This document shows positions 18,617 to 36,512 of a stretch of DNA of 40,000 nt, piece by piece (position 1 is the stretch's first letter; every line of letters begins with the position of its first letter). The translations under genes and the position numbers were made by a program. This DNA is from Natronincolaceae bacterium. Its GTDB lineage: Bacteria > Bacillota > Clostridia > Peptostreptococcales > Natronincolaceae. Location: the NCBI GenBank assembly GCA_048264125.1, contig JBLXDM010000002.1, positions 318,005 to 358,004 on the forward strand. The letters are read 5' to 3'. Below the pieces are notes generated by a model. That model saw only the letters and a program-made list of their open reading frames with translations, was not told the origin of the DNA and ran no database searches.

Positions 18617-18754
18617 CTATGGTGTAGGATAATCCTCACCTGTTACTTCTTTGTTTTGCTCTACGGTTATCTTGCCTACACGAACAGCATCTACTACCAT
18701 TTCCTTAGTCCATAGTCCTTGGTCATAAAATCTTTTTATTCTGTCGAACCACAT
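18617..18754 (-). CDS. XkdX-family small phage protein
   Basis: A 45-aa ORF below the track cutoff. It reads MWFDRIKRFYDQGLWTKEMVVDAVRVGKITVEQNKEVTGEDYPTP, which matches the XkdX pattern (W..RIK.YY..GLWTKE.V...V..GKIT.E.Y.EITGE). Confidence 0.8.
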   Translation of the reverse strand: MWFDRIKRFYDQGLWTKEMVVDAVRVGKITVEQNKEVTGEDYPTP

Positions 18755-18755
18755 T

Positions 18756-19163: not shown

Positions 19164-19168
19164 CCCTC

Positions 19169-21702: not shown

Positions 21703-22250
21703 TATATCGCCTCCTTATATGCTTCTAATTGCTCCCATGTGAGATTTAGGACATCCCAAGCCTGCCAGCTTTTATTAAAGTCATCAAATTCACTCCAGGT
21801 CAAATAGTTAAACCTGAAGCTGAAGGGAAGGTGAGCAGGCTTAATGCTATTGATGGTGTCCTCAAGGTCATTTAAATTGGGAGGTACACCCCTAGTGCCT
21901 ACAAAGCTTATGACAATGGAGCCATCAAAGCTCACCTGTACCTCTCCATTGGAATAGGCCTCAGCCACCAGCTGTATGAGCCGGGCATCTACCTTACCAG
22001 TGCCCCGCCATTTTGACTTAATGACACTCCTTCGCTCCTCAAGGCCTTTGCTTAAGTCGGTTTTTATACCCAGCTCTGCCTCATATATCTCCAGGCCCCA
22101 TGTTGCCGTGTCAATATTTAGCTGCTGCCTAATCTCCTCAATGCTTGCCTCTGCAGCCTCAAGCTCCTTTTCCTCGCCTCGGAAGATTTCATTAAATATT
22201 TGGGATTTCCTCATAAATATGGGAAGGTAATTAATCAATTTAGTCCTCAT
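21702..22250 (-). CDS. Baseplate/tail protein, XkdU/YmfQ (gpI-like, DUF2313-type)
   Basis: 182 aa. It reads YLPIFMRKSQIFNEIF...ATWGLEIYEAELGI....LEERRSVIKSKWRG and lies downstream of the baseplate J gene. Confidence 0.75.
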   Translation of the reverse strand: MRTKLINYLPIFMRKSQIFNEIFRGEEKELEAAEASIEEIRQQLNIDTATWGLEIYEAELGIKTDLSKGLEERRSVIKSKWRGTGKVDARLIQLVAEAYSNGEVQVSFDGSIVISFVGTRGVPPNLNDLEDTINSIKPAHLPFSFRFNYLTWSEFDDFNKSWQAWDVLNLTWEQLEAYKEAI

Positions 22251-23310
22251 TGATAGCTACCTCCCCTAAAACAGGAATCTCATTCTCCTCCAGATAAATA
22301 TTTGTTGCACCGCCATTAAGGGAGAGATTCGTATAATCAACTATGCCTGATGTTTGGAGAATCAAGCTTCCTATAATTGCATAGCTAATATAACTGTCAG
22401 TAAATGAGACCTCTCTAAAATAGCCCCTAAGAGACTCCCTTACCGCCGCTTCAACCGCTTCCTTTGTATAGCTTCCCTCCAGCACTGCATCGAAGGATAT
22501 CTGCAGGAGCTTTGCCACAGCACTTTCAACAGTACAATGGGCTCCAATTGGTGCTGCTCCCTCTCCTGCTCCAGCGGCATTTGGGTCAATATGTCCCTGC
22601 ACCATTTCTACTATTTCAGAGTCTGCCGGCTCCTTTAGCTCATTGATTATGACCACCTTAACCGTGTTGTCACCGGCCCATAGTGGAAATACCTTTGCAT
22701 CGCCAACCCCCTGAACCTCCTTGGCCCAGCTTTTATAATGGGCTCTATTGCCGCTGGTGGTGGGGGTCTTTATTCTCTCATAATATCTCTGCAGCAGGGC
22801 CTTATCACCTTCTGCTTCAAACCCATTGTTGGTGGGCTGTGGATTTGTTGCCTCTGTTATTCCTGCTATGGTTATAGGAATACGCCTTACTTGATTGGCA
22901 GGTACATTACCAACAACCCCTTCAGCTAAGCATTGAATCTTAACCAGTGCTAAGCCGGCAACATTCCGTGTCTCAATTGCTTCAAACTGTATCCCGCTTT
23001 CTGTCTCAAACAGACTCCCCATTGCTACGGTACCATTACCCTTTACCTCAACCTGACCTATGGCCTTGGTGGCGGCTTTTCTAGTTAAGCCTGTCATCTG
23101 ATAAATTTTCTGCTCCAGCTCAGCTGCCGACAGCTTTTCAATATCCAGCTTTTCGGCTACTATGCTCATATCCTTATACATTTCTTCCAGTCTAATGGCT
23201 ACAGGCTTGGTGGCATCATATATAAAGCTGCCCTCTGTTTTGTCATATTCGTTGCTTATCTCCTGCATGATATCATCATGTATTTTATTTCTTTCCTTTT
23301 CTTTAAACAC
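22240..23310 (-). CDS. Baseplate J-like protein (XkdT/gp47 family)
   Basis: The call rests on 356 aa length, its position, and a J-like N-terminal region (EGSFIYDATKPVAIRLEEMY). Confidence 0.85.
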   Translation of the reverse strand: MFKEKERNKIHDDIMQEISNEYDKTEGSFIYDATKPVAIRLEEMYKDMSIVAEKLDIEKLSAAELEQKIYQMTGLTRKAATKAIGQVEVKGNGTVAMGSLFETESGIQFEAIETRNVAGLALVKIQCLAEGVVGNVPANQVRRIPITIAGITEATNPQPTNNGFEAEGDKALLQRYYERIKTPTTSGNRAHYKSWAKEVQGVGDAKVFPLWAGDNTVKVVIINELKEPADSEIVEMVQGHIDPNAAGAGEGAAPIGAHCTVESAVAKLLQISFDAVLEGSYTKEAVEAAVRESLRGYFREVSFTDSYISYAIIGSLILQTSGIVDYTNLSLNGGATNIYLEENEIPVLGEVAINED

Positions 23311-23728
23311 TCAGCATCACCTCCTGCTCTATGGCATTGTTCACATTAAAGAAAATAGTTAGGCATGAGTTATCCTTTTCCAGCTGCCAGCCGCTGATAT
23401 TCATTACCTGTGGATTCTTCATCAATGCCTCAGTAATCTCTCTTTTTATCTCGCTTTTTATATACTCTATAGGGAGATTCTGACCTACGATTAAATCCTC
23501 CAGTGATACACCATAGCTGCTTGTGTAGATTTCATGTTTTCCCTTTTCGGTCCTCAGGAGCTTTTCAATCCAGATGCTTAACGCCTCCTCATCACTGGCC
23601 TCCACCAGTCTTCCATCCTTCATTACAAAGTCCCCACCTTCAAAATCAAATAAAAAGGACCTACCCTGTTGTAAGCCCTCATTCGATTCCGGTGATTCAA
23701 TTTGTAGATATCCTATCCTTGGTAGCAT
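23303..23728 (-). CDS. Baseplate wedge protein, XkdS-like (DUF2634/gp25-like fold)
   Basis: 141 aa. It reads FLFDFEGGDFVMKDGRLV...IWIEKLLRTEKGKHEIY and overlaps the J gene. Confidence 0.7.
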   Translation of the reverse strand: MLPRIGYLQIESPESNEGLQQGRSFLFDFEGGDFVMKDGRLVEASDEEALSIWIEKLLRTEKGKHEIYTSSYGVSLEDLIVGQNLPIEYIKSEIKREITEALMKNPQVMNISGWQLEKDNSCLTIFFNVNNAIEQEVMLSV

Positions 23729-24079
23729 CTAAAAGCTCACCGCCTTATCTAATACATAATATTTCTGTTCATCCTTTGTGGGGATTATGATCACCCTATC
23801 ACCTGCCTGAAGGGAATCTGTAAATTCAATTTCACCCTCCGCAGTAAAAGGAGCATCAACGTCTAAAAATTCAATGCTTCCATTAGCCCGATAGCCTCGT
23901 TTATGGTCCTTTAGCATATGGGCTGCAAAAATCAAATGCTCCTTGGTAAGAATGATTTTTTCCCCTAAGGCCACTTTAATATCCGGCAATGGTGAAACCA
24001 CCCTTCCCAGCTGTACCCCTGAATTAACGATGTTATCCCTAGCCCTGAGGAGCTTCGCCAGCTCAACTATACCATTCAT
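23729..24079 (-). CDS. Baseplate spike/plug protein, XkdR-like (DUF2577-type)
   Basis: 116 aa. It reads GVQLGRVVSPLPDIKVALGEKIILTKEHLIF and is in synteny. Confidence 0.7.
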   Translation of the reverse strand: MNGIVELAKLLRARDNIVNSGVQLGRVVSPLPDIKVALGEKIILTKEHLIFAAHMLKDHKRGYRANGSIEFLDVDAPFTAEGEIEFTDSLQAGDRVIIIPTKDEQKYYVLDKAVSF

Positions 24080-25050
24080 TCAAACACCCCCAAATCTAAG
24101 GTCATGGTATGAATGCGGTTTTTAACCACATGACTGCAGCCCTCAATTATATAGAGGCCCTTCATCCCTGTAGTCTCCTCCTCTATTTCTATCAATCTTC
24201 CAGCCCTGACCTCATCATGACCCATAATAGCTAAGGAGCTCTTTTCTGTAATCCTGCCGCTCTCCTTCAAGCTGTTACTGCCAATGGCTATTGCCTTTCC
24301 CCTATTGGTATCCTCCACCTCTATTACCTGCTGCAGCAGACCATATTTTTCTATAAGCGCCTCGTCCTTTGCTGTATGGATAACATCATTGTTGTTCACC
24401 AGCTTTACACTGTTAAACATTTCAGTTATAGAAAGACTCCTTGAGGGGCCTCCTATTGAGGTCTGAAGGCTATGCTCCTCCAGATTTGCAGCCAAGCTGA
24501 AGAGGCCCTCCACCCTGAGGATTTTTTGAGGCTCAACATAAAGCTTTCCTGCCCTCATTTCCATAACATATTTATCACCAGTCTCAGCCTCCACTGTTGC
24601 CAATATATCTCTGATGATGTCGCTTAGGGCTTTATCTTTATAGATTTTATTTATTGTAGCTGCTATACTTACAACATTTCCTATAGGTATACTGAAATCC
24701 CTTAAGATCTGAAGTATCGCGCTTGTAGCAGAAATTGAATTGAATTGATAGACCTCTTGAGATTTATTGAGATAAAAGGAAAAGTCCATCGCGGTATATT
24801 GAAGGGGCTGCCTTCCGCTTCTTTGCTCCGATACTACTATTCCTCTAAATACCTCCCCCTTGTTTTCAAGCATTATCATATCGCCTATGCCGCAGGGGTT
24901 GGCAGGAAAAAATCTGGTATCATTAAAGGCTATATTAAAGCTTAGCTCATCCCCCAGCTGGTCTATACTGCTTTTCCAGCTTATTTCTCCCACCAAAGGG
25001 GTTATGTTTATTCTTTCATCCTTCTTTATAAGCCAAAGCTGATGAGCCAT
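24076..25050 (-). CDS. Baseplate hub protein, XkdQ / late-control-D-like
   Basis: The call rests mainly on size (324 aa) and position between the XkdP-position and XkdR-like genes. Confidence 0.6.
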   Translation of the reverse strand: MAHQLWLIKKDERINITPLVGEISWKSSIDQLGDELSFNIAFNDTRFFPANPCGIGDMIMLENKGEVFRGIVVSEQRSGRQPLQYTAMDFSFYLNKSQEVYQFNSISATSAILQILRDFSIPIGNVVSIAATINKIYKDKALSDIIRDILATVEAETGDKYVMEMRAGKLYVEPQKILRVEGLFSLAANLEEHSLQTSIGGPSRSLSITEMFNSVKLVNNNDVIHTAKDEALIEKYGLLQQVIEVEDTNRGKAIAIGSNSLKESGRITEKSSLAIMGHDEVRAGRLIEIEEETTGMKGLYIIEGCSHVVKNRIHTMTLDLGVFE

Positions 25051-25051
25051 A

Positions 25052-25474
25052 TTACACCTTCTCCCTCTTTAGCTGAATGAATTTGAATTCCTCCAGGCTT
25101 AATGTATAATATATATCCCCGCTGCCATTGGACACGCCATAGGTGAAGTCCTCAATCGTGCAGGCCATATTTATAGGAGTATTTGTAATAACCAGCCTAA
25201 TGGGAAGCCTCTCGGACATCCATGCCTGCAGCCGCTCAACATACTCCCAGCCCATATACCTTCTGGCCCTTAAAAAGGGATAGTTCCTTACTGGAAAGAA
25301 TGACTGAATGGATATGGATTTTAGCCCCTCCATTCCTATTAGCTTTATATCCCCCTGCGAGATTGTCTCATAGGTTTCATTTTTTTGGGGATGCTGAAGG
25401 GTAAACTCCTCTGGAACTACGGGAAGCCGAATAATTTCTTTCCTATTGTTTATAGATAAAAAGACATCTATCAT
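25052..25474 (-). CDS. Tail protein in the XkdP position (no LysM motif seen)
   Basis: 140 aa, immediately after the tape measure gene. The call is positional only. Confidence 0.5.
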   Translation of the reverse strand: MIDVFLSINNRKEIIRLPVVPEEFTLQHPQKNETYETISQGDIKLIGMEGLKSISIQSFFPVRNYPFLRARRYMGWEYVERLQAWMSERLPIRLVITNTPINMACTIEDFTYGVSNGSGDIYYTLSLEEFKFIQLKREKV

Positions 25475-25486
25475 ATGCTCTCCCCC

Positions 25487-27292
25487 TTACATATTGGCTA
25501 ATGTAAACTTCAGCCTTGTAACCATTTCATTTACAACCTCATCCGTTGACATATTACTGCCATTTATATTTATTGTGATATTGGGTGCATTACTAGCCCC
25601 TTCAATCAAACGCTGTGACTTATCCGCTGGTATAATGGCTTCGCCGCTGCTTAAGTGTCTGATCTCCCCGCCACGTTCATGCAGGAGGGCAAGGCCTCCC
25701 CTTGAATAGGTGGTTCCCATAGCAAAGGCAGGAATTTTAGGTATATCTATGCCAAAGCTCATGCCCCCATATTTAGGCACCCAATCAGGAACTGTAAAGT
25801 TAATTTGGTTTACACCGTCTATTACCATGTTGATGAGTTCAGCCGCTGGTCTGAAAAATGATAGAACCCCTTCTAGGGCATTGTTAAAGACGTTTTTGAA
25901 AAAGGTAGATACGTTTCCATATATCGACTGGATGCTCTCCCATAGGACTAGTGCCTTTTCTTTAACGGTGTCCCAGTTCCGGTATAGTGCGACGCCAGCT
26001 ATTATCAATCCTCCAATAACCATTGTAGCAATTCCAAGGCCAGAAGATAGAAATGCAGTTGCCGTTGCCAGCATATACTTCAATACAATCGTTATTGCAA
26101 CATAAGAATTGTATATGATGGTGTTAATATTGGCAACCAGCATCGCTGCATTATAAAATGCCAACGCTCCAGCAACACCCCAAATAATTGGCTCAAATAT
26201 CACCCATTTATCCTTTATAAAATTGTACAATTTTATAGCTCCGTTGCATATTTCTCCAATGGAATCAACAATACTTGGCAAGCCAACATTTTTCATCCAA
26301 TCCAAGATTGGCTTAAAGAGCTTAAAAGCATTATCAAAGGTTAATCCTATGTTTTCCGCACCTGACCTAAGCTCATCGAGGATTCCCCTTACACCTTCAA
26401 AAGCAGGCATATTTTCATTAATTTTTTCCTTTATTTTTTCAAAGGCATCAAGTCCCCATATCCCTACCTCCTTCATAATTCTACCGAAGCTTTTAATTTT
26501 TTCGGTTAAAGTATTTATCATAGGAGCATTTCTCACAATAGCCTCTTTAATTCTTTGGAAAACATTTACCGTTATGCTGTGAATATAGGGGATATATTGT
26601 ACAAACCACTTTGCCAGCCCACCTTGAAGACCTAAAACCACCATTCCAACCTCTTCTTTAACATCAGCCCATGCATTTTTCATATTTTGAATTCGTCCTA
26701 TATCTGTATCTGCCATGGTTTGGCTTAAACCACCAATATTGTCATTTAGGATTTTAGCCAGAGTGCTTGCTTTATCAGATTCCTTCCCATATTTTAATAT
26801 TTCCCCTTGGGCAAAACTGAATTTCATACCTGCTTTAGCGAGGACATCTGTTTGCCCTGTCATTACAGCTGCCAGCATATTCCCTGTGTTTGCAGCATCC
26901 TGCTGAGTTGCAGCTACCCCATGCTGTAGAGCTATCAGATCATTCATTCCCGGCAATAATGCCTTTATTGTCTCTGTCCCCAATTTATTGGTTGCCAGCT
27001 GCTTTACACCTGATAGCTGTACTTCATCACCTGTTACCCCTAATTTCTGCAGCTCATTAGCATATTTTTTAATACCCTCGATCTGTTCAGCTGTTGCTCC
27101 ATTCAAGCTCTTCATTACAGTTTCCATATTCATTTCAGCAGCCATCTTGTTTTTAGCAGCTGAAATGCTATCCTTAACAAATTCTTTAGTTGCTGCTAAT
27201 CCAATCTTTTCGTACTTCTTAACTAAAGCGGCTGCACCTTTTAAAAACTTATCGTATGCATTAATTTGTTTTTTTTCAATATCTGTAGACAT
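25487..27292 (-). CDS. Tail tape measure protein (module 1)
   Basis: The ORF is 25487..27310. The likely start is ATG 27292. It has a helical Ala/Lys-rich N-terminus, a central hydrophobic block and the C-terminal motif GTTYSRGGLALLHERGGE. That motif parallels GTNYHPGGLALVGERGPE in the second tape measure. Confidence 0.85.
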   Translation of the reverse strand: MSTDIEKKQINAYDKFLKGAAALVKKYEKIGLAATKEFVKDSISAAKNKMAAEMNMETVMKSLNGATAEQIEGIKKYANELQKLGVTGDEVQLSGVKQLATNKLGTETIKALLPGMNDLIALQHGVAATQQDAANTGNMLAAVMTGQTDVLAKAGMKFSFAQGEILKYGKESDKASTLAKILNDNIGGLSQTMADTDIGRIQNMKNAWADVKEEVGMVVLGLQGGLAKWFVQYIPYIHSITVNVFQRIKEAIVRNAPMINTLTEKIKSFGRIMKEVGIWGLDAFEKIKEKINENMPAFEGVRGILDELRSGAENIGLTFDNAFKLFKPILDWMKNVGLPSIVDSIGEICNGAIKLYNFIKDKWVIFEPIIWGVAGALAFYNAAMLVANINTIIYNSYVAITIVLKYMLATATAFLSSGLGIATMVIGGLIIAGVALYRNWDTVKEKALVLWESIQSIYGNVSTFFKNVFNNALEGVLSFFRPAAELINMVIDGVNQINFTVPDWVPKYGGMSFGIDIPKIPAFAMGTTYSRGGLALLHERGGEIRHLSSGEAIIPADKSQRLIEGASNAPNITININGSNMSTDEVVNEMVTRLKFTLANM

Positions 27293-27329
27293 CTCTTCAC
27301 CTTCTTTCAAGGAAGATAAAAGAAGGAGC

Positions 27330-27470
27330 CTATTTCATGCTCCATCGCTCCTTCTCCTCTTCAAAATACAGCTCCATACTGGCTGCCATCAGCAGCCTTT
27401 CATCATAGCTTAGATTAATTAGATAATCCAGCCTGAAGCCCCTTTGCAGGTAGTGATGCAGAAAGTACAT
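27330..27470 (-). CDS. Small ORF in the -1 frame downstream of the chaperone gene (probable frameshift extension, gpT-like)
   Basis: A 46-codon ORF below the track cutoff (MYFLHHYLQRGFRLDYLINLSYDERLLMAASMELYFEEEKERWSMK). It has no good SD of its own. It is in the -1 frame relative to 27488..27886. Confidence 0.5.
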   Translation of the reverse strand: MYFLHHYLQRGFRLDYLINLSYDERLLMAASMELYFEEEKERWSMK

Positions 27471-27487
27471 ATCTCCATCACTACTTA

Positions 27488-27886
27488 TTAGTTTTTTATA
27501 TCCTTAACCGCCTTTACACTGTCGGAATATCCTGCCATCTGCAAGCAGTAGCCGGATATGCTTCCGATTTCTCCAGCTTCAAAGATTTTTTCCACGATAT
27601 CCGTTGGTTCCACACAGCCAAACTCCTCCTGCAGCTTTTCATCCTTAAGATTAGGCTCGATCACACAGTTATAAACCATGTGGAGATCCGCCTTATCCTG
27701 AGTGGACTCATTTTGTGCAATGGAAAGGGCCTCCATGCATAGGGCCCTTGTTGGCTTCTTTACAATGATATAGGCCTCCAAGGAGGGAACATAAATCTCC
27801 TCCCGCTGATTTTCCTTTTGCTTCAATTCTTCCTTCTTCCTTATCAGGTCTGTTACCGTTAGCTTCTTAAGATTTTTCTTTGACAT
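27488..27886 (-). CDS. Tail assembly chaperone, XkdN-like
   Basis: 132 aa, between the tube and tape measure genes. It ends in ..GAT ATA AAA AAC TAA, which contains a slippery heptamer. Confidence 0.7.
   Translation of the reverse strand: MSKKNLKKLTVTDLIRKKEELKQKENQREEIYVPSLEAYIIVKKPTRALCMEALSIAQNESTQDKADLHMVYNCVIEPNLKDEKLQEEFGCVEPTDIVEKIFEAGEIGSISGYCLQMAGYSDSVKAVKDIKN
27491..27497 (-). other. Candidate -1 programmed frameshift heptamer A AAA AAC
   Basis: The minus strand reads ATA AAA AAC TAA. The X XXY YYZ pattern sits directly before the chaperone stop. A -1 slip reads CTA ATA AGT AGT GAT GGA GAT ATG TAC..., which joins the 27330..27470 ORF. Confidence 0.5.
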
Positions 27887-27901
27887 GACTGTAGCCTCCT
27901 A

Positions 27902-28336
27902 TTAACCTTCTATTAAATCAGGAAAATCAAAATCACTGAAGCCGAAGGGGATATCCTCCTCCACCTTTGCCTTTTGCTCAAAGGACATCAGCATTACCTC
28001 GTTGAACCAAACATTATAGAGGACAACCCTCTGAGTTCCGAAGGCATCGGGGTCCGCCAGCTTGGCAACTATTTTAGACCTTACCTCCTGACCATCCTTA
28101 ATCGCCATAGCTATTTTCTTTTGGGCCCTTGAATAAACCTTCTTCAGCTTCATGGTGCCTTCACCGCTCCAGCCCAGCACCTTGGAGTCCTTTGACAGTG
28201 AGCCTGCCATATTTATCTCTTCTCTATCGATGGTAATCTTAGCCTCAAAGCTTTCAATATCCGCCAGCAGCTCATTATCCCACCATACGGAGCCAAAAGT
28301 GCCATTTATCAATCTTTTACCTTCTACCTTATTCAT
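27902..28336 (-). CDS. Contractile tail tube protein (XkdM-like)
   Basis: 144 aa. It reads INGTFGSVWWDNELLADIESFEAKITIDREE...GWSGEGTMKLKKVYS and lies downstream of the sheath gene. Confidence 0.78.
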   Translation of the reverse strand: MNKVEGKRLINGTFGSVWWDNELLADIESFEAKITIDREEINMAGSLSKDSKVLGWSGEGTMKLKKVYSRAQKKIAMAIKDGQEVRSKIVAKLADPDAFGTQRVVLYNVWFNEVMLMSFEQKAKVEEDIPFGFSDFDFPDLIEG

Positions 28337-28373
28337 TTATATCATCCTCTCCACGAAATTGTATTTTGACCTT

Positions 28374-29423
28374 TTATAAAGAAATGTTAAACTTTAAGTC
28401 CTCAACTGAATCCAAGAACTTCAGGTTGCCCTTGACGAACACCTGACTTCTGAAGGCCTTCTCTTTGATCTGCTGCTCTGTAAGGTTACTGGTATTCACA
28501 CCGATTCCCTCCCAGGCCAAACGCTGAGCTTCTGTATCGATAGCAACGCTGTTGTTGTAGGATGGGTCCAGAATATCCCCCTCCAGCCCCTTTAAATATG
28601 AATTTACAGCAGTTAAAAACAGCACCTGATTATCATAGGAATTGTTGACCTTGCCTACATACTCATCCTCGAAGGTTCTGGTGATGTCCTCCTTAATTAG
28701 ATCCATTCCCTCTACTATCTTGATCTTCTTAAACTCCTCACCCTTTTCAGTAGTTGTGGTGGTTAGGGAGTTTACGCCTCTGGCGATTTTTATCTTTTCG
28801 CCGTCGTTTATTAAAATAAGCTTCCCGGCATCGATGTCTGCATTGGGATTAGCTGAATCTGAAATAGATTCCACCTCCGGTAAAACATAGTAGGTTGCAG
28901 AGCGGGTAAAGGGCAGACCTGCTAAAATCCCCGCTATTCTGCAGGTGTATTCAGCTGCTGAGTATACCTTTCCTGCTGCTGTTATGCCTGATGCTGAATA
29001 ATTAATGATGGCTTCATCGTCAGCACTATGGCCTGCAACAACAGCCTTAAAGGTCTTGCCTTCATTTTGCCTGCAGCCTTTAGTCCATTGTGCTACATCC
29101 TCTGAGGCAGCTGCATCCGGCACCGCCAGATAATTAAAGCTCTTTGATTTTAAACGCTCCAATGCAGGATTATAGCTGGTGGCCTCTGTATCTATTCTCT
29201 CCACTATCAGCTTAGAGGGATTTCCTAAGAAGGTCTTTTTAATTAGATCTAGGCTTTCCTCAGACCAGTCCTCCTCCTTTACCTCACTTATGATTCTGTA
29301 TTCCTTAGCATCAAAGGCTCCTGTGTCATCCTTTAATATAAGGGCCACTATGCCCCTTTCACTTCTTTCTACTGCATTAACTGATTTTGTTTTAAAAATA
29401 ATATCAATTGTTGGTAAACCCAT
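28374..29423 (-). CDS. Contractile tail sheath protein (XkdK-like)
   Basis: 349 aa. It lies upstream of the tube gene and carries a sheath-like segment YTCRIAGILAGLPFTRSATYYVLPEV. Confidence 0.85.
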   Translation of the reverse strand: MGLPTIDIIFKTKSVNAVERSERGIVALILKDDTGAFDAKEYRIISEVKEEDWSEESLDLIKKTFLGNPSKLIVERIDTEATSYNPALERLKSKSFNYLAVPDAAASEDVAQWTKGCRQNEGKTFKAVVAGHSADDEAIINYSASGITAAGKVYSAAEYTCRIAGILAGLPFTRSATYYVLPEVESISDSANPNADIDAGKLILINDGEKIKIARGVNSLTTTTTEKGEEFKKIKIVEGMDLIKEDITRTFEDEYVGKVNNSYDNQVLFLTAVNSYLKGLEGDILDPSYNNSVAIDTEAQRLAWEGIGVNTSNLTEQQIKEKAFRSQVFVKGNLKFLDSVEDLKFNISL

Positions 29424-29446
29424 TTACATCAACTTCCCTTCTTTTT

Positions 29447-29866
29447 TTATTTAAGCTTAATGTTTTGCATAAGCTCATTATCATCCGTCTCTTCTTTGGC
29501 TTCAAAATAATTAACATTGAATTCAAATTGAAAGACTCCATCCACTAGCTTGGATGAAGTCTCCAGTATTTTAATGCTTCTGTCCTCAATTTTCATTGTC
29601 AGCTGAAACAACTCCTCCAGACCTTCTATAGCCTCCAAAGCCTCCGACATTCCAGCAGTAGTATTTGAAGGATAGATATAGATTCTGACAGTTAGGCTTC
29701 TTTCGTAATTGTAGAGCCTGTTGTTTTTGATGATGTTGTCCAGTTCGATGTATATTGAGGTTGCTTCGAGTGCTTCTGTTGGTTTTTGAGGCAGTAGCTG
29801 TAGTTGAGGAAGGCCGATGGTGACTACTTCCTCAACTGTTTGTTTGATTTTTTTTAGGGTGATCAT
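29447..29866 (-). CDS. Tail completion/terminator-type protein (XkdJ position)
   Basis: The ORF is 29447..29902. The likely start is ATG 29866 behind GGAGGG. It is the first gene of the module, and the call is positional. Confidence 0.5.
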   Translation of the reverse strand: MITLKKIKQTVEEVVTIGLPQLQLLPQKPTEALEATSIYIELDNIIKNNRLYNYERSLTVRIYIYPSNTTAGMSEALEAIEGLEELFQLTMKIEDRSIKILETSSKLVDGVFQFEFNVNYFEAKEETDDNELMQNIKLK

Positions 29867-29932
29867 TGGTTTTTTCCCTCCGTGTTTTTGAATAAGGACC
29901 ATTCTTTGTTAGATATAATTGGATGTAATGGC

Positions 29933-29957
29933 ATAAAAAGAACACCTGGTCGGTGTT
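29933..29957 (-). terminator. Weak terminator-like hairpin at the junction
   Basis: The minus strand reads AACACC-gacca-GGTGTT followed by CTTTTTAT. The stem sequence is the same as at 18523-18539. Confidence 0.3.
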
Positions 29958-30192
29958 GTGTCGTAATAATATCTTTTGTTGATTTTAGAATTTCATTAAT
30001 ACCTTCAATAGCCAACTCAAGCTTACTTGTTTTTCTATAGTGCCTCTCGTCGTTTTCTTTAAGCTGACTAATTTAGTGCTTAATTCTTTCTTCTAATTTT
30101 ACCATTGTATCTTTGATTCCCTCGACTTCCCTGATTATCAAAGCAATCTCTACTTCCTTTGTACATATTTTATGCTTATCCAGTATACCCAC
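29958..30192 (-). pseudogene. Interrupted coiled-coil ORF, possible remnant of a phage lysis-cassette gene
   Basis: The reading frame VGILDKHKICTKEVEIALIIREVEGIKDTMVKLEERIKH runs into an in-frame TAA (30075..30073). It then continues as ISQLKENDERHYRKTSKLELAIEGINEILKSTKDI. Resemblance to the tail of the BhlA-like protein (LKEN..R...) is weak. Confidence 0.25.
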
Positions 30193-30216
30193 CCTTTTCT
30201 TTGACAGCTTAACTTT

Positions 30217-31284
30217 TTATAATATGAAAATTGTACTTTGTCTTAAGAAATAAAAATAAATTGTCAAAACAATTACTTGACTTACAACAACTTTACCACC
30301 TATTTTAAATAAGGTTTTTTGTGGAAGTCCATAGCTTGAAGCTATTGCCAAACAGCTATTAGCAAAAATTGTCATAAAAGATAAATCTATAGCTTTCACT
30401 GCAAGGGTAAATAACCACAGGTTCTCTGTTGAGATCGTAAAAGGTAACGCTATAGTGGTGATAGCAGTATTAGTTAATATGTTGGTTAGTCCTGCTAATA
30501 CACTAGTTATAAATAGAGTTTCGAGAAATGAATACTCTCTTGCTAGGTCTATTAAAATATTTCCTTTTGCCCAGGTATTAATATAATTGCCAAGTATAAA
30601 TGCACTACTCCAAATATAGATTGCTTTAAAAGGCAGTTTAATAAATTCTTCCTTACCTAATAAACATATGAAGATCAATGCTATAGCAATGCAAATTATA
30701 TAGTATTCTGTGCCTTTTAAAAATACTAATGTCACTGCAATTATTATCAACAATGACTGTAAGCAAAACAATGGATTTATGTTGATATCTTTTTTAGGTA
30801 GTCTCCTTGCTATTCCACTATCATATGTTTTGTATAATATAAATCCTGTCGCTATTATTCCCATCAACGTCGGCAATAAAAATAATTTAAACCATAATCC
30901 AATAGTAACGTCTACTTTTAAAATGCTTTCTAGTAAACTTCTTGAAATAATATTGTCCCCACCACCTAAAAACGTAAAATCACTACCAGCACTAATTCCA
31001 AAAGCTACTGTCAAAATCATAGACATCTTGTCTATTCCTCTTTCTTCAGCATAAATCAATGCCATCGGTATTAATATCGTAGCTATAGTCATATCAGTTG
31101 TAATTCCAGTCATGACAGAAGCAAAACCAAACCATGCTAGTAATACTAATTTTGAATTTCTTATTCTATCAAATGGGTGTGTAGCTAACTGTAGTAATCC
31201 TATTTTATTAGCTGATAATATTACAAGCATTAAGCTAAACATTAAAGCTATATTGATAATTAATTTTGGAAGCATATTAATCAT
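30217..31284 (-). CDS. Polytopic permease, ion-transporter superfamily (ArsB/NhaD, CitMHS, DASS-like)
   Basis: The ORF is 30217..31314. The likely start is ATG 31284, which forms an ATGA overlap with the rSAM stop. It has about 10 TM segments. Two related halves each carry a hairpin-like motif (FASVMTGITTDMTIATILIP and LAGLTNILTNTAITTIALP) and a G-rich loop (FTFLGGGDNII). Confidence 0.6.
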   Translation of the reverse strand: MINMLPKLIINIALMFSLMLVILSANKIGLLQLATHPFDRIRNSKLVLLAWFGFASVMTGITTDMTIATILIPMALIYAEERGIDKMSMILTVAFGISAGSDFTFLGGGDNIISRSLLESILKVDVTIGLWFKLFLLPTLMGIIATGFILYKTYDSGIARRLPKKDININPLFCLQSLLIIIAVTLVFLKGTEYYIICIAIALIFICLLGKEEFIKLPFKAIYIWSSAFILGNYINTWAKGNILIDLAREYSFLETLFITSVLAGLTNILTNTAITTIALPFTISTENLWLFTLAVKAIDLSFMTIFANSCLAIASSYGLPQKTLFKIGGKVVVSQVIVLTIYFYFLRQSTIFIL

Positions 31285-32114
31285 ATATCTTCTACTCCTT
31301 CTGTATAGTAGCAAGTTACTCCTTGCAGCATTCTTAGCATTCTCATTCTTGTTTTTACTTCATCAAAATTATTTATATGACCAAACTTATATTTAGCTAA
31401 ATTAGGGCAAGGTATGATATTACCATTAAAATCAAATGATAAATTTGAACCTTTTGCACTACTAAGTAAATTATTACATTTAGTAGTAATACTTCTACAT
31501 GGTATATCTTTACTTTTAAGTTTATTTATTACTTGATCACGGTTTATATTTTGAGTTTCATTTAATTCTTCTGCTCTACCAGAAGAACTTACAAATTGTA
31601 CACGCTGAAAAACTTTTAATTCTTCATTTACGAATTTACTAAGTTCTACAATTCGTTCAATATCATCATCGCATATAACAGTAGCTACTATAACTTCAAA
31701 ACCTTTATCCCTATAAATTTTAATAAATTCAACTGCTTTATCAAACACCCCTTTACCTCTAATATTATCATGACAATCTCTCATTCCATCTAAACTTACT
31801 TGAAAAGTGATATTTTCTTTAGAGAAATCTTTAAAAGGAAATTCAAAGGTACCGTTAGTATTAAGTTGTACTTTAATATTATTTTCTAAGCAAAAATCTA
31901 AAACAGATTTAGTCTTAGAATACACTAACGGATGAAGAGGTTCTCCGCCAGATATTTTGATATTTTTTAAATCAGGCAGCTTTCTAAACAGAGATACTAA
32001 TTCTTCAGTAGTAACTTCTTTATCTAACGTGGCTAAAGAGCTAGATGAAGAACAACAATGAGGACATTTCAAATTACATAATTGAGATATAAGCATAGTT
32101 ATACTTGTTATCAT
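31281..32114 (-). CDS. Radical SAM enzyme with a short SPASM/twitch-like C-terminal Cys domain
   Basis: 277 aa. The C-x3-C-x2-C motif is at residues 13-20 (LCNLKCPHCC), and the GGE motif is in ISGGEPL. SLDGMRDCHDNIRGKGVFDKAVEFIK is an AlbA/SkfB/anSME-type string. The C-terminal Cys set is PCRSITTKC...FNGNIIPCPN...VTCYY. Confidence 0.85.
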   Translation of the reverse strand: MITSITMLISQLCNLKCPHCCSSSSSLATLDKEVTTEELVSLFRKLPDLKNIKISGGEPLHPLVYSKTKSVLDFCLENNIKVQLNTNGTFEFPFKDFSKENITFQVSLDGMRDCHDNIRGKGVFDKAVEFIKIYRDKGFEVIVATVICDDDIERIVELSKFVNEELKVFQRVQFVSSSGRAEELNETQNINRDQVINKLKSKDIPCRSITTKCNNLLSSAKGSNLSFDFNGNIIPCPNLAKYKFGHINNFDEVKTRMRMLRMLQGVTCYYTEGVEDI

Positions 32115-32120
32115 TATTCA

Positions 32121-33113
32121 TTACCATCCACTGTGAGGCTTTACAACTATAGCACTAATTGAAGTAATATTAGTAGTTATTTGCCCCGTTATCTTTACTC
32201 TACATTTACTTCTTATCTTTTGCATTCTCCACATTTGATATTGCATAAGATTTGTTGTTAAATGCCAAGTATGTGTTTGATACCCAGAACAACCACAACC
32301 ATCTGAGTAATAAGTATCAAAAGCCGCTGTATGAAGTATATTATTTGCTTCATCAACTATTTGAAGCTCACCTTTGCCTTTGAGAGTTAATGTTAATTGT
32401 CTTAATCCATTAAAATCATGTAGCTCTGAAGTATAAGTGGCTCCAGCAGTTATAGTTCTAGAACCACTTACTATAACTGTATGAGAAGGTTTAAGCATTA
32501 ACATTTGATATATTGTTGATTGACCTCCCCAATAAGAGTCGCCACGGCAACAATCTTCATCATAATTAGATCTACCTCTAATATCAATAATAATATCACC
32601 TTGATGGTTGAGTACGCTTGAATTAAATGCATACAAGCTATTCATGGGTGAGTGCGTAGCACCACTATAACCAGTGTTATAACTATGCGTTTGAAGTATA
32701 CTTAAGTCGGAAGCTTTGCGAATATATAAATAAGCAAATGCGCTACCAAATCCTTGAAAATGGCCTGTAAACATTAAGTGAGTGAATCCTGAAGCATTAA
32801 CATTAAATCTCATATATCCATATACACTTTCATTATAACAACAGTAAAACTGTAGCCTTGCATAAGTTGACATATCTAAAAATCTTAAAGAGTTACCCAA
32901 AGGTATACCATCAGCACCAGCTATTATAGGTGTGCCCTTAAACCCAAAGTCATATAATACTCCCTCAGATAGTGGATCGTAATTTACCCAACCTTCTCGC
33001 CAAGTACCACTTATGTTAGGACTTATAGAATCTACCTCTCTCCATACTCCATTAATATTTACCCATGAACCATCGATTTTTCGCCAAGTACCACCTACAT
33101 TAATATGAGACAT
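32121..33113 (-). CDS. Unknown 330-aa beta-rich protein with N-terminal G-x-W repeats and vicinal-cysteine clusters (possibly a distal tail-fibre or receptor-binding protein)
   Basis: A strong RBS GGAGGTG lies 7 nt upstream. The N-terminus is INVGGTWRKIDGSWVNINGVWREVDSISPNISGTWREGW. Cysteines occur only at 91-92 (CC), 188-189 (CC), 273/275 (CGC) and 304. No TM or signal peptide is present. Confidence 0.6.
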   Translation of the reverse strand: MSHINVGGTWRKIDGSWVNINGVWREVDSISPNISGTWREGWVNYDPLSEGVLYDFGFKGTPIIAGADGIPLGNSLRFLDMSTYARLQFYCCYNESVYGYMRFNVNASGFTHLMFTGHFQGFGSAFAYLYIRKASDLSILQTHSYNTGYSGATHSPMNSLYAFNSSVLNHQGDIIIDIRGRSNYDEDCCRGDSYWGGQSTIYQMLMLKPSHTVIVSGSRTITAGATYTSELHDFNGLRQLTLTLKGKGELQIVDEANNILHTAAFDTYYSDGCGCSGYQTHTWHLTTNLMQYQMWRMQKIRSKCRVKITGQITTNITSISAIVVKPHSGW

Positions 33114-33116
33114 ATA

Positions 33117-33218
33117 TTACACCTCCAATAAGGCTATTACCTGTCCTTTCCACTTTGTAGGTACTTGCTCGACAGTCCATAAACCTTCTTTTATTAAGTC
33201 AGCATATATTTTAGCCAT
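33117..33218 (-). CDS. Small conserved-looking phage protein (33 aa)
   Basis: Below the track cutoff. It reads MAKIYADLIKEGLWTVEQVPTKWKGQVIALLEV. Its ATG overlaps the stop of the upstream gene by 8 nt (ATGGCTAA). Its 3' end carries the RBS of the 330-aa gene. It resembles short A.LI..G..T...VP proteins found next to Firmicutes phage fibre genes; this is from memory, not a search. Confidence 0.5.
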   Translation of the reverse strand: MAKIYADLIKEGLWTVEQVPTKWKGQVIALLEV

Positions 33219-33858
33219 TAATATCCTCTCCTTTTAATAAGATACCAGCCAGCTCTACTAATGCTAGCTTGATATCAATATTATCTTGTAAAATTTGTTG
33301 AAGGACTGTCTCAATTGTGTTCGACTCGTTAATATTTTTAGTTGGTATATCATTCACTATAAGGTGAATAGTTAAAGTTTCTTGAATGTCTTCACATTTT
33401 GCAGTTACATGAATTTGGTCTTCTGGTTTATCGGGTTTAGATACTAAAACTTCACCGTTAGTAGCACCCTCCCAAATAACTTCTCCTAGATAAATATTAT
33501 TATATTGATCTCTAACTTCTGCATTAAGTGTTATAATTCTTTCAGGGTCGCCCTCTTCGAAAAATGCACAATTGTCTCCCTTAATTATAATCTTATTTGC
33601 CTTTGGTTCTTCGGGTATGAAACCTATGCCATCTACATTTAGAGGTGCAAGAATGGATGGATAACCTCCCAATTCTACTACTTTCTTTTCATAGTCTAAA
33701 GAATGCTTTATTACTTTATACAACTCCATGTATTTTTGTTCTTCACTCAAACCTTCTATAGTTTCTTTACCTATGGAACCATAAACTAATATATTATCAT
33801 ACACAAATCCTGCTGAAATGTCTGTATTCGTTTCTTTGTATTCTATAATTGTATACAT
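33211..33858 (-). CDS. Phage hypothetical protein downstream of the tail fibre (accessory or chaperone position)
   Basis: 215 aa with a GGGGGG RBS. It is AT-rich like the cassette that follows, and I recognised no motif. Confidence 0.55.
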   Translation of the reverse strand: MYTIIEYKETNTDISAGFVYDNILVYGSIGKETIEGLSEEQKYMELYKVIKHSLDYEKKVVELGGYPSILAPLNVDGIGFIPEEPKANKIIIKGDNCAFFEEGDPERIITLNAEVRDQYNNIYLGEVIWEGATNGEVLVSKPDKPEDQIHVTAKCEDIQETLTIHLIVNDIPTKNINESNTIETVLQQILQDNIDIKLALVELAGILLKGEDING

Positions 33859-33870
33859 TTGAATCCCCCC

Positions 33871-34695
33871 TTACTTATATTTAATCCATATGTCTCCATT
33901 GCTTCCACCACTTGGGTCAGCTGTAGACATAATTACATTTCTTAGCTGTCTAGTAGTATATGATGTGTTCGATTGCGCAACAGCTATTCCTGTGAAAGCG
34001 TCACCATTAGCGTTTACTAACTTAGTCCATGCACTCCAAACAGCACTATATCTGTTACGTATATAAATACCATTACCGCCATTGTATTGAATTGCTATTT
34101 GACAAGCATTAACTGCTTCACCCAATGAGGCATAGAAGTATGTTTGTATATACCAGTAAAATGCACTATTTGGACTATTTGAATGATTAGTAAGTATCTG
34201 ACCATGCAATGTGGTATTTGGGTCTGCGGTTGTGGTTCCTTGGGTAATCATTGGAATTTGCTTTGCGTTATCTACGCTACCAAGCCCTACTTGGGATTTT
34301 GTTACAGTATGTGGATTCGCAGTATCCGCCTTATGTGCATTACACTCATTTTCAATAGCCGACACCTCTTGAGCTATAGTTGCAATTTCGCTATCAGTGT
34401 ACCCTTTAGCTGTATCCACCGCACCCTGCAACTTATTATCAATATCATGGGCAGTGTTGTCTGTCTTATGCTCCTGTAGCTCTTGTTCTGATGCAAAGCC
34501 TCCTTCATCCATCGTTATAGCTTTTTCCTGCAGCTCCTCGATTGCTTTATAGCTTCTATTAAAGAGCCAATTTAACCACCCTGCAGGTGGTCTTTCCTGC
34601 GGCTGCCAGCCCTCTGTCTGCTTGGAGGCAGGGGGCTCTGTGCCTACATTCTCCCACTTGGGGAGTCTTTCATTAAAATTTCCCATAGCTTGCAC
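33871..34695 (-). CDS. Phage tail fibre protein (module 2)
   Basis: 274 aa. The N-terminus is LPKWENVGTEPP...GWQPQERPPAGWLNWLFNRSY. It carries HKADTANPHTVTKSQVGLGSVDN, a knob domain shared with the module-1 fibre, and the ending GGSNGDIWIKYK. Confidence 0.8.
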   Translation of the reverse strand: MQAMGNFNERLPKWENVGTEPPASKQTEGWQPQERPPAGWLNWLFNRSYKAIEELQEKAITMDEGGFASEQELQEHKTDNTAHDIDNKLQGAVDTAKGYTDSEIATIAQEVSAIENECNAHKADTANPHTVTKSQVGLGSVDNAKQIPMITQGTTTADPNTTLHGQILTNHSNSPNSAFYWYIQTYFYASLGEAVNACQIAIQYNGGNGIYIRNRYSAVWSAWTKLVNANGDAFTGIAVAQSNTSYTTRQLRNVIMSTADPSGGSNGDIWIKYK

Positions 34696-34698: not shown

Positions 34699-35316
34699 CT
34701 ATATTGGTAAATCCAAATCATTCCCCGGCGAATATACTGCCCCTAGAGTTCCCCCTATGGTCTGCTCTAAATCGGCTAAACCTGTGGTGGCATCAAGCTC
34801 TAGCACATTATTTGAAGCTGAAAACTGAAAGGTCCCTTGAAACAGCACCTTTGCCCTAACCCCAGCTGCCACTATTAGGTTTACCAGCCTTCCGAATTGG
34901 TTGATTGAGAAACCTATACTGTTCAGCAGCTCCGTTGGGAAGCTTATAAATACGCTTGCGGCTTCTGGCTCATCGGGGTCATTGTAAAGCTCCTGAACCT
35001 CAATATCCTCAGCTGTGGTGTTTAAGGTGACGGACAGTATTCTTATGAGTGTATTGATATCTCCGGTGGAAAGGTTTCTTGCAACGCTGGATTTTATTAG
35101 TATTCTATAGACCTCATCCGTTGCTGCCCCCCTTGGCTGCTGTAGGTTAACTCCTATCCTATCCAGCACTTCACCTATTGCCTGATCGATATCTCTGTAG
35201 GCCTCAGTTTTATTTACGGCCCCCTTTATATCCTCCAGCTCACCTGCTACTATGCTGAAGAGCTTTCCTATATTGCTACCGGGGTCTTTTTTGTAGTTAT
35301 CCGTCAGTCTATCCCA
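34699..35316 (-). CDS. Baseplate/tail protein, gpI/YmfQ-like; true start unclear
   Basis: The track ORF starts at GTG 35169. The open frame continues upstream with family-like sequence (WDRLTDNYKKDPGSNIGKLFSIVAGELEDIKGAVNKTEAYRDIDQAIGEVLDRIG) and no canonical start codon. The nearest ATG (35320) is one nucleotide out of frame. Confidence 0.55.
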   Translation of the reverse strand, partial: WDRLTDNYKKDPGSNIGKLFSIVAGELEDIKGAVNKTEAYRDIDQAIGEVLDRIGVNLQQPRGAATDEVYRILIKSSVARNLSTGDINTLIRILSVTLNTTAEDIEVQELYNDPDEPEAASVFISFPTELLNSIGFSINQFGRLVNLIVAAGVRAKVLFQGTFQFSASNNVLELDATTGLADLEQTIGGTLGAVYSPGNDLDLPI

Positions 35317-35324
35317 GCATTGAG

Positions 35325-36512
35325 CTAAGCACTGGTTACCACCACCCTGGTATAGTCTGTTTCGGCAACCCTTGCCATCGTTACTGCAATATTCCCTGTT
35401 ATATATTCAACTCCGTCGGTGGATACCTGTAGCTCTAAATCATTTATCCCCGGTACGCCATAGGCTGAATTTATCAGCTTGGTATACACCAGCTCCTGCC
35501 CCATTCCTAGGCCCGAGTATATATTTCCGTCAGCATCTGTACCGCCTATATGCTTAATTAGCTCTGTCCTGACTCTATCGTCCCCATCCAGTGGGTATAG
35601 TGTGCTTTTAGAAATATTGACCCTACAATAAATAGGAACCTCCTCGGCGAAGGTGAAGTTTACAGTATGGGGGTTGCCTGCGATATCCTTTACTGATACG
35701 GATTGAGTGCCCACAGTTTCTATTCCTGCTGCCTTGGTAGAAAGAATGGCTTCTCCGATATTGTCGGGATTTCCCCCCAGCACATAGCATTCTATGCTTT
35801 TAGGTGGTCTGCCCTCATCATCCTCAGCACTACTGCTGTTTTCCAATACCAAGGCCGCCCTTACCCCCGTCAGCTCCAGTAGGCTCGCCCTAATACTGGC
35901 AAGGGTACTGGCTCCACCTCTGGCAACGGATTTGATATATCTCTCCCGAAGCTCTGCATCTGTTTCAATATTTGTCCCCTCTGAAAGGGCTGCGGGGTTG
36001 GTTATGGACTCCACTCCAGCTATAGGGTTTGTGATTTCTGTTATTGTATTGGCGGGTACATTCCCTTCAACACCGGGCATCATGGCCTCTATGGGAAGCA
36101 GCAGCTCTCCTGCCTCATTTATGACACCCAACCCTGTGGTTTTAAATTTTATTTCATCCTTGGTCTCCACAATAAAATCCTTCTCTACCATAGTACCGCT
36201 GTCTCCAAGGATTAATATTTCCCCTTTTGCCGACGTCCACAGTCTTCTTTCTATTCCAATGTACTTGCCTAGATAATCCAGCTGCACGCCCTCTGCAGTG
36301 TCTACATAGCCGCTGTAGTAGACCTTTTCGGTGGTCTCCCACAGCAGCGCCAGACTCCAGGCAATTACCCTGAAGAATATTCCCAGGGGACTTCTTGGGC
36401 TGAGATTTACATCCTCTCCAAACAGGCCTTTGGCCCTGCTGTTCATGCTTTCTATAAGGTCGTTGTATCTCTTTCGTTTAAAGCCCTGCCTGCCTAATCC
36501 AAAGCTATCCAA
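35325..36512 (-). CDS. Baseplate J-like protein (module 2)
   Basis: The call rests on 395 aa length, position, and a J-like N-terminal region (SPRSPLGIFFRVIAWSLALLWE). Confidence 0.85.
   Translation of the reverse strand: MDSFGLGRQGFKRKRYNDLIESMNSRAKGLFGEDVNLSPRSPLGIFFRVIAWSLALLWETTEKVYYSGYVDTAEGVQLDYLGKYIGIERRLWTSAKGEILILGDSGTMVEKDFIVETKDEIKFKTTGLGVINEAGELLLPIEAMMPGVEGNVPANTITEITNPIAGVESITNPAALSEGTNIETDAELRERYIKSVARGGASTLASIRASLLELTGVRAALVLENSSSAEDDEGRPPKSIECYVLGGNPDNIGEAILSTKAAGIETVGTQSVSVKDIAGNPHTVNFTFAEEVPIYCRVNISKSTLYPLDGDDRVRTELIKHIGGTDADGNIYSGLGMGQELVYTKLINSAYGVPGINDLELQVSTDGVEYITGNIAVTMARVAETDYTRVVVTSA

Follow-up and report, generated by a model that had tools for sequence, protein, structure and literature searches.

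A mobile phage module in which an SkfB-type radical-SAM enzyme without a RiPP recognition element is coupled to a putative secondary permease

SkfB, the sactisynthase of the Bacillus subtilis sporulation killing factor (SKF), is a radical S-adenosylmethionine (SAM) enzyme whose auxiliary cluster is held by ligands in a CX33CXC arrangement (PMC6231123), and the arsQML genes, which code for a GntP-family permease (ArsQ), a methyltransferase (ArsM), and a radical-SAM enzyme (ArsL), are responsible for the synthesis and export of the antibiotic arsinothricin (PMC8552651). The window analyzed here is a 40,000-nt stretch of contig JBLXDM010000002.1 of a Natronincolaceae bacterium (GCA_048264125.1), and all positions follow its numbering unless another locus is named. 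On its minus strand, a gene for a 277-aa radical-SAM enzyme (31281 to 32114), which matches PF04055 and has a CX3CX2C motif and a twitch-like C-terminal domain, is followed by a gene for a polytopic permease (30217 to 31284), the family of which matches PF03600 and the start codon of which overlaps the stop codon of the enzyme gene in an ATGA. The two genes are a mobile, phage-specific, and dispensable accessory module, in which an SkfB-type twitch enzyme lacking a recognition element (RRE) for peptides that are made on ribosomes and modified after translation (RiPPs) is translationally coupled to a putative secondary permease. Phage radical-SAM enzymes are known mainly from nucleotide and queuosine pathways. 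We found no description of the pair in curated families, in PADLOC-DB v2 models, or in the searchable literature, in agreement with the original prediction, made from the letters of this DNA, which had not recognized the genes as a described set.

The permease open reading frame (ORF) spans positions 30217 to 31314. Translation from an alternative in-frame TTG (31314) gives 365 aa, and translation from the ATG at 31284 gives the 355-aa protein found in the public protein collection. The ATGA overlap (31284 to 31281) reads GATATATGATTAAT, with a GGAG 11 nt upstream, and the junction of the two genes reads ...GATATATGATT.... Upstream of the enzyme gene, a gene for a 330-aa protein (32121 to 33113, minus strand) ends 6 nt away, the gap at 32115 to 32120 being read TAA-tgaata-ATG. 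The three minus-strand frames, the 6-nt gap, and the overlap had been pointed out in the original prediction and are all present. The radical-SAM and permease genes are adjacent in 11 of 11 distinct loci (the window, L001, L002, L005, L006, L007, L139, L140, L141, L142, and L089), every one of which is phage or prophage. The pair is an inherited two-gene unit, and in the loci obtained it occurs in phages and prophages only. In nine loci the two genes overlap by up to 14 nt or are separated by up to 18 nt, L140 has a 196-nt gap, and in L005 a methyltransferase-like gene stands between them. L139 is a jumbo-phage-like contig of 241 kb in which the order is swapped, i.e., the permease gene precedes the radical-SAM gene, with a 4-nt overlap kept and no fibre module. 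Profile scans of IMG/VR with either protein returned the same four viral contigs. The pairwise divergences of the two proteins are correlated (Spearman 0.42, p = 0.004), and a ratio of nonsynonymous to synonymous polymorphism (pN/pS) of ~0.3 to 0.5 indicates purifying selection on the pair. No third gene is common to all loci; a SAM-methyltransferase-like gene is found inside the fibre, radical-SAM, and permease block in 2 of 11, namely L005 and, upstream of the pair, L141.

Two side observations concern these loci. The methyltransferase-like proteins of L005 (10840 to 11454 of that locus) and L141 (8957 to 9553) have ~200 aa, share the motif LEIMAGCG, and are 45% identical to each other; neither has a match in Pfam or NCBIfam. 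In L139, a tRNA gene (8090 to 8174) lies in the ~940-nt gap upstream of the permease and radical-SAM genes, and ferritin-like and Acb2/Tad1-like genes are located just upstream.

In 10 of the 11 loci the pair is downstream of fibre genes and upstream of a lysis cassette, and the gene order is fibre, XkdW-like and XkdX-like (or DUF4376 and CmpB-like), radical-SAM enzyme, and permease, with XhlA-like, holin, and amidase genes downstream. A survey of co-occurrence at prophage fibre/lysis junctions, which the original prediction had suggested, thus bears out the two-gene pair and not the 330-aa gene. The corresponding order in PBSX is xkdV-xkdW-xkdX-xepA-xhlA-xhlB-xlyA. The lysis genes directly follow the pair in 8 of the 10 loci; in L089 they are separated from it by a second fibre set, and in the window by a second tail module. 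A position like that of xepA, together with a terminator-like hairpin 3' of the permease gene in L001 and L002, would suit a pair that helps to time or carry out host lysis. We regard such a role as very improbable, because holin and endolysin sets are complete without the pair, the pair of L139 is away from lysis genes, and that of the window is 12 kb from them. In particular, the near-identical prophages L288 and L312 have lysis cassettes 72 to 89% identical to that of L002 and no pair, and because these close relatives do without it, the pair is, to judge from genome comparison, dispensable. The phages that carry it are siphovirus-like, myovirus-like of two kinds (PBSX-like and E217-like), and jumbo-phage-like. 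Their named hosts are Desulfitobacterium dehalogenans, Desulfosporosinus acididurans, and Candidatus Formimonas warabiya (Clostridia; Desulfitobacteriaceae or Peptococcaceae), which belong to groups of strict anaerobes. In the cultivable strain D. dehalogenans ATCC 51507, the prophage with the pair is at ~4.20 to 4.22 Mb of CP003348.

The radical-SAM enzyme matches PF04055 with an E-value of 2.4e-17 (64.1 bits against a cut-off of 29.5 bits). Cys13, Cys17, and Cys20 of the CX3CX2C motif are invariant among 15 aligned sequences; Cys213, Cys236, and Cys268 in the C-terminal region are likewise invariant in the family alignment, in which most members have a CxC at positions 266/268. The SPASM family PF13186, characterized by a seven-Cys motif for two auxiliary [4Fe-4S] clusters, is matched by neither the window enzyme nor its 14 close homologues, and the C-terminal region has these three invariant cysteines only. 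The C-terminal domain is predicted at the levels of sequence and fold to be of the one-cluster twitch type known from SkfB, BtrN, and MoaA and to bind a cluster, and the twitch segment GNIIPCP aligns with GYVTPCQ of SkfB. The enzyme had been called SPASM-twitch-like in the original prediction; its radical-SAM and twitch-like parts stand, and SPASM is to be dropped. A search of PDB sequences with the family profile gave SkfB first (E = 7.8e-22; query residues 4 to 251 on chain residues 110 to 371) and anSME next (4.5e-12). Since the alignment begins at chain residue 110 of SkfB, which is opposite residue 4 of the phage enzyme, the RRE is absent; PF05402 was not matched either. The AlphaFold2 model has a mean predicted local distance difference test score (pLDDT) of 86.7 and is composed of alternating β and α elements. 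With this model, Foldseek ranked SkfB best (TM-score = 0.73), followed by SuiB, EpeE, BlsE, ChlB, and anSME. The closest solved relatives SkfB, SuiB, EpeE, and anSME thus place the enzyme in the peptide- or protein-modifying class, as had been proposed from its motifs. It also falls outside the housekeeping families such as MoaA, QueE, the PflA/NrdG activases, and anSME, every NCBIfam score being far below its cut-off (best, ScmE, 75 bits against 400; MoaA, 41.5 against 284).

About 14 full-length homologues of the enzyme with identities of 35 to 54% were obtained (~14 protein clusters among 5.8 billion). In the phage GenBank collection, neither the cassette nor the 330-aa protein had a match at the DNA or protein level, and the radical-SAM enzyme matched only two distant gut-phage enzymes of RiPP type; the one examined (H3) has an RRE and an MFS transporter and belongs to a different family. 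Scans of genome and metagenome contigs with the radical-SAM profile returned mostly mycofactocin-type maturases and added only the known Desulfosporosinus locus. The next-closest radical-SAM clade (380 to 400 aa) matches over the core alone and was therefore left out of the argument. As a separate observation, the genes of this clade (L145 and L146; the contexts of P0018) lie in small mobile elements with an Apyc1-like metallo-β-lactamase, a NUDIX hydrolase, and a zeta toxin, a grouping that looks like a separate anti-defence or defence islet.

The permease homologues have 352 to 369 aa, and 8 of 10 family members match PF03600 (CitMHS; best E = 1.3e-10). GGGD and TNxxTNT motifs are conserved across the family, and there is a weak internal-repeat signal, with motifs around residues 56 to 77 and 264 to 285. 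The window permease has no Pfam match and only a weak match to DASS (E = 4e-4; 19 bits against a cut-off of 198.6 bits). The designation as an ion-transporter-type permease, which had been given before, is supported by the family and only faintly by the window protein itself. No match to the permease was found among PDB sequences, and its profile found nothing in the metagenome collection. The protein is probably a divergent secondary permease of the CitMHS type within the ion-transporter superfamily.

The coupling of enzyme and permease is the strongest and most universal feature of the module, and the simplest explanation would be that the two proteins share one small solute. Our tentative preference, on grounds of mechanism and with a probability of roughly 0.45, is an enzyme-transporter couple acting on such a solute, a reading that the original prediction had listed among its hypotheses. 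The enzyme would cleave SAM at the [4Fe-4S] cluster of the CX3CX2C motif and abstract a hydrogen atom from a substrate held near the auxiliary cluster of the three C-terminal cysteines, and the permease would carry the same low-molecular-weight, probably anionic, solute, either as substrate import or as product export. The role of the couple might be to make or alter a compound that acts at the cell surface or between competitors, e.g., by receptor or envelope modification or as an exported antimetabolite. We hold this surface or competition role weakly; under it, the pair would therefore travel with fibre sets. The lack of a precursor peptide, i.e., of any Cys-rich small ORF or third gene conserved across the loci, fits an enzyme-transporter couple, and the arsQML genes are a precedent for a unit of such composition.

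Several observations weigh against this solute hypothesis. The closest characterized relatives of the enzyme (SkfB, SuiB, EpeE, and anSME) act on peptides or proteins, not on small molecules. Transport is ascribed to the permease purely by family membership, and its structure model, with a pLDDT of 46, is unusable for the fold. The pair has no obvious promoter of its own: it shares its strand with the late tail operon and is tightly packed against the structural genes, which is atypical of a lysogenic-conversion gene, and scans around the window cassette gave no promoter or terminator signals above shuffled expectation. The alleles of the pair in near-identical phages are only 39 to 54% identical, which is more like host-interaction than metabolic genes. 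Finally, the enrichment of adjacent cysteines in neighbouring fibre proteins described below is not predicted by a small solute.

If the enzyme instead matured a small peptide for export by the permease, in the manner of a minimal RiPP or bacteriocin, the candidate substrates would be the XkdX-like ORFs of 33 to 49 aa, one of which lies immediately 5' of the radical-SAM gene in 6 of 11 loci. The window has a previously unannotated ORF of this kind (33 aa, 33117 to 33218, minus strand, recognized by reading the sequence) one gene further upstream; it has the sequence MAKIYADLIKEGLWTVEQVPTKWKGQVIALLEV, overlaps the end of a 215-aa gene, stops 3 nt short of the 330-aa gene, and was found inside an apparent intergenic gap of 97 nt. 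It is 56% identical to the small ORF of L089, and in other loci ORFs of 45 to 49 aa fill the equivalent slot just before the radical-SAM gene. The class of the enzyme is RiPP-maturase-like, its structural match EpeE/YydG is likewise without an RRE, and prophage-borne peptide toxins such as sublancin and SKF exist. Maturation of these ORFs is nevertheless improbable. The small ORFs are similar to XkdX, a widespread family that is present in phages without any radical-SAM enzyme; that of L001 scores 22.4 bits against the Pfam XkdX cut-off of 23.5 bits, and the others have no Pfam match. They contain 0 or 1 cysteine, none of which is conserved, and L002, L007, and L139 lack the ORF. There is, moreover, no RRE, leader peptidase, or ABC or MFS exporter, and we know of no permease of the ion-transporter superfamily that moves or exports peptides.

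The mobility of the module is seen most clearly in comparisons of related prophages. The DNA identity of L002 and L141 is 93% as far as the N-terminus of the fibre protein, and it is 85% over the last third of the permease gene and beyond; between these points, from the fibre gene through the radical-SAM gene into the first two-thirds of the permease gene, they are unrelated. In L089, a block of fibre, XkdW, XkdX, radical-SAM, and permease genes stands ahead of a second fibre set. The pair is swapped between near-identical prophages as one block with the tail-fibre set, and in 8 of 10 loci its G+C content is below that of the flanks. A dispensable, AT-rich, rare, and highly divergent module that is recombined with a fibre set has the traits of an arms race, and it could serve, as the original prediction had also proposed, in superinfection exclusion or anti-phage defence, in which the membrane protein would block entry or collapse the membrane, the radical-SAM enzyme would be a sensor or effector, and both would be inherited with the fibre whose receptor they protect. 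Fibre-adjacent exclusion genes such as llp of T5 and the lambdoid cor exist, and the pair of L139 has an Acb2/Tad1-like gene 2 kb away. We consider this doubtful, as PADLOC has no model that matches the permease, the pair sits inside the late operon with no promoter or terminator signature of its own, and the conserved transporter motifs point to real transport rather than to a pore or decoy. The similarity of the enzyme to the pVip model of PADLOC (E = 1.2e-9) is confined to residues 5 to 184, i.e., to the shared core, and viperin structures rank below SkfB, SuiB, EpeE, and anSME in Foldseek. To our knowledge, a Cys-bearing twitch domain is not a feature of viperins.

The 330-aa protein, which the original prediction had singled out for its cysteine clusters, does have seven cysteines, at positions 91/92, 188/189, 273/275, and 304, making two CC pairs, one CGC, and a single Cys. 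Its earlier inclusion in a three-gene set has to be given up, since it is without a full-length homologue, lies in a block not homologous to L001, and belongs to a fibre-adjacent class. A search of 5.8 billion proteins matched only the protein itself, and an exhaustive HMMER scan of 1.84 billion representatives found no full-length homologue; PADLOC models gave no match either. Residues 1 to 48 consist of three NIGGxW(K/R) repeats, an adaptor ahead of an orphan body, and the same adaptor heads more than 80 proteins (E down to 9e-10), the C-terminal domains of which vary (β-propeller, LamG, and DUF6273). The protein matches PHROG 21772 with an E-value of 0.003, and its relatives match PHROG 21772 and PHROG 25859 more strongly; these are families of unknown function comprising tail-fibre-associated NIGGxWK-repeat proteins. 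In seven IMG/VR loci, the NIGGxW(K/R) gene directly follows a tail-fibre gene ending in ...GGxNGD(I/V)W.... The 274-aa tail-fibre protein of the window (33871 to 34695, minus strand) shares this ending (...SGGSNGDIWIKYK), although, unlike in those loci, two small genes stand between it and the 330-aa gene. Because its relatives directly follow tail-fibre genes, the 330-aa protein is, on present comparisons, best described as a modular fibre-associated virion protein separate from the radical-SAM and permease pair. Two large proteins matched by residues 222 to 304 were set aside as spurious: one match is compositional (Cys/Tyr/Thr-rich), to a eukaryotic SAXO repeat protein, and the other protein has no significant domain match.

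The 274-aa protein belongs to PHROG tail-fibre families (best E = 2.9e-21), and its 68% identity to the L001 protein is limited to the N-terminal 85 aa, the C-terminal part being variable. The gene between it and the small ORF encodes a 215-aa protein (33211 to 33858, minus strand) without Pfam or PHROG matches; from its position within the AT-rich variable fibre block and a C-terminal resemblance, judged by eye, to a 101-aa protein of L001, it probably occupies the XkdW-like slot. The DNA homology between the window and L001 stops at 34489 and returns at 32078, at the start of the radical-SAM gene, and because of these two breaks the fibre C-terminus, the 215-aa gene, the XkdX-like ORF, and the 330-aa gene are delimited by alignment as a variable host-range block.

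In 6 of 10 fibre-linked loci, the distal fibre protein encoded beside the pair contains adjacent cysteines (the 330-aa protein of the window and the proteins of L002, L006, L007, L140, and L141), and in L006 and L140 the two adjacent residues are the only cysteines of the protein. Among 67 homologous, non-redundant fibres that come from IMG/VR loci lacking the pair, a single one has the same feature (Fisher's exact test, p = 5.9e-6); this control set was drawn mostly from other host clades, and host clade may confound the contrast. A Gly-rich C-terminal domain (...GGGAGG...W..C(C)..D...GGVTSFG...) is present in the fibres of L140, L141, L005, and L089 and absent from the 67 control fibres. These contrasts lend some new statistical support to a minority reading, generalized from one in the original prediction, in which the SkfB-like enzyme would modify the Cys-bearing distal fibre or receptor-binding proteins encoded just upstream, e.g., with thioether cross-links; in the window it would act on the 330-aa protein, with the permease in a supporting part. 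The closest solved relative SkfB makes Cys-to-Cα thioethers, the absence of an RRE suits a protein substrate rather than a leader peptide, and the pair is swapped and co-transcribed with fibre sets. We nonetheless judge fibre modification to be unlikely. It gives no role to the universal and translationally coupled permease; L001, L005, L089, and L142 carry the pair without adjacent cysteines in the fibre; L139 has the pair away from any recognizable fibre module; and L312 combines a CC fibre and a near-identical lysis cassette with no pair. In addition, the contrast is not significant within the close clade, and no sequence motif is shared around the fibre cysteines. The enzyme-transporter couple acting on a small solute remains our preference.

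In the window, the G+C content is 28 to 32% over positions 30000 to 32500 and 40 to 49% in the flanks (500-nt windows), which confirms the AT-rich cassette noted before, and the island proves to be larger, reaching ~33.9 to 34.2 kb and taking in the 215-aa gene and the 33-aa ORF. The G+C contents at third codon positions are 12.9% for the radical-SAM gene, 22.5% for the permease gene, 20% for the 330-aa gene, and 22% for the 215-aa gene, versus 45 to 49% for the flanking baseplate, sheath, and amidase genes. The cassette is located between two tail modules, as had been proposed: baseplate and tail-fibre genes with PHROG matches lie upstream, and tail terminator and sheath genes with Pfam matches, together with tube genes, lie downstream. 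The window is syntenic with L001, its closest relative, from the tail genes through the host hisZGD genes, and the radical-SAM and permease genes are part of the common backbone, with 67% DNA identity. In L001 the lysis cassette is directly 3' of the permease gene. The lysis cassette of the window (17257 to 18247, minus strand) comprises an Amidase_2 endolysin of 222 aa (17579 to 18247; PF01510, E = 6.4e-18) and a holin-like protein of 111 aa (17257 to 17592; weak Holin_LLH match), and these genes are 71% and 58% identical, respectively, to those downstream of the L001 permease gene. Since the homology to L001 ends at 30224 and returns at 18272, just before the amidase gene, with ~190 nt of L001 replaced, the PBSX-like second contractile-tail module (18273 to 30223, minus strand, ~11.95 kb; delineated from Pfam terminator and sheath matches, the ORF list, and the L001 comparison) is, relative to L001, an insertion between the permease gene and the lysis cassette. 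The module contains terminator, sheath, tube, tape measure, baseplate, fibre, and XkdW/XkdX-like genes.

Some further features of the window are recorded here. No riboswitch or other RNA clues were found in it. The second contractile-tail module is complete, extending from the terminator gene to the fibre and XkdW/XkdX-like genes, and head genes belonging to it are absent from the window. Two different tail modules, both in one orientation, seem to be served by a single lysis cassette. At the junction of the permease gene and the second module, a coiled-coil-like frame of 110 codons (29863 to 30192, minus strand) with one in-frame TAA (30073 to 30075) is possibly the remnant of an XhlA-like lysis gene, and a terminator-like hairpin is located at 29957 to 29941. 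In the baseplate gene at 34699 to 35340 (minus strand), the homology to L001 runs ~54 codons upstream of the first available start (GTG, 35169), and the N-terminus reads M-E-R-L-T-D in L001 and W-D-R-L-T-D in the window. The start codon appears to have been lost, and the gene may be truncated or defective, as in a decaying prophage.

An enzyme of the SkfB type without an RRE that is tied to a putative secondary transporter at a fibre/lysis junction is new to the curated libraries and the searchable literature. The family is small, yet it spans siphovirus-, myovirus-, and jumbo-phage-like genomes of strict anaerobes, which speaks for a function under selection. A pair that makes or moves a small molecule would bring a new type of accessory chemistry to phages. 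A pair that modifies fibres would represent a new class of virion post-translational modification, which would explain the vicinal cysteines of the fibre tips, and fibre sets and their cognate maturase, plus the permease, would travel as one host-range cassette; we know of no earlier radical-SAM modification of a virion protein, and this would be the first. Under either reading, the pair is a defined two-gene target for anaerobic biochemistry.

Among known systems, xepA of PBSX, llp of T5, and cor are fibre-linked accessory genes of tailed phages. The pair resembles them in being inherited with a fibre set and in its genomic slot, which follows the fibre, XkdW, and XkdX genes and precedes those for the XhlA-like protein, holin, and amidase; they have no sequence relationship to the pair, however, and none is an enzyme-transporter pair. 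The PF03600 matches of the permease family (8 of 10 members) and its weak internal-repeat signal relate it tentatively to the CitMHS, DASS, and ArsB families, although the protein is short and scores far below their curated cut-offs. GntP is a further family of the ion-transporter superfamily, and the phage module is analogous to arsQML in joining a radical-SAM enzyme and an optional methyltransferase to a probable permease of this superfamily in a compact unit, a likeness offered as analogy and not as tested homology. On the other hand, the phage enzyme is SkfB-like, its permease is CitMHS-like and not of the GntP family, the methyltransferase-like gene is present in 2 of 11 loci, and the genes belong to a late operon and not to an ars operon. 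The sactisynthases and other RiPP maturases SkfB, AlbA, and CteB have an N-terminal, PqqD-like RRE that binds the leader peptide and an adjacent gene for a Cys-containing precursor, with a protease and/or an exporter, features that the phage pair lacks. EpeE/YydG and anSME are structural matches (Foldseek E = 1e-10 to 1e-9) and are RRE-less like the phage enzyme. YydG works together with a protease, an ABC transporter, and a peptide dedicated to it, and none of the three is present at the phage pair. The substrate of anSME is a full-length protein, in which a Cys or Ser is modified, and its SPASM domain, unlike the C-terminal domain of the phage enzyme, is complete, with two auxiliary clusters. 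SkfB (PDB accession number 6efn) differs from the phage enzyme in that the identity is only ~21%, the whole N-terminal RRE is missing from the latter, and no SkfA-like precursor, CAAX protease, or ABC exporter is encoded near the pair. It is nevertheless the best match in both sequence and fold, the two enzymes consisting of a radical-SAM core and a one-cluster twitch domain, and the C...CxC pattern of the phage family, in which the CxC of most members is a single Cys in the window protein, is comparable to that of the SkfB ligands.

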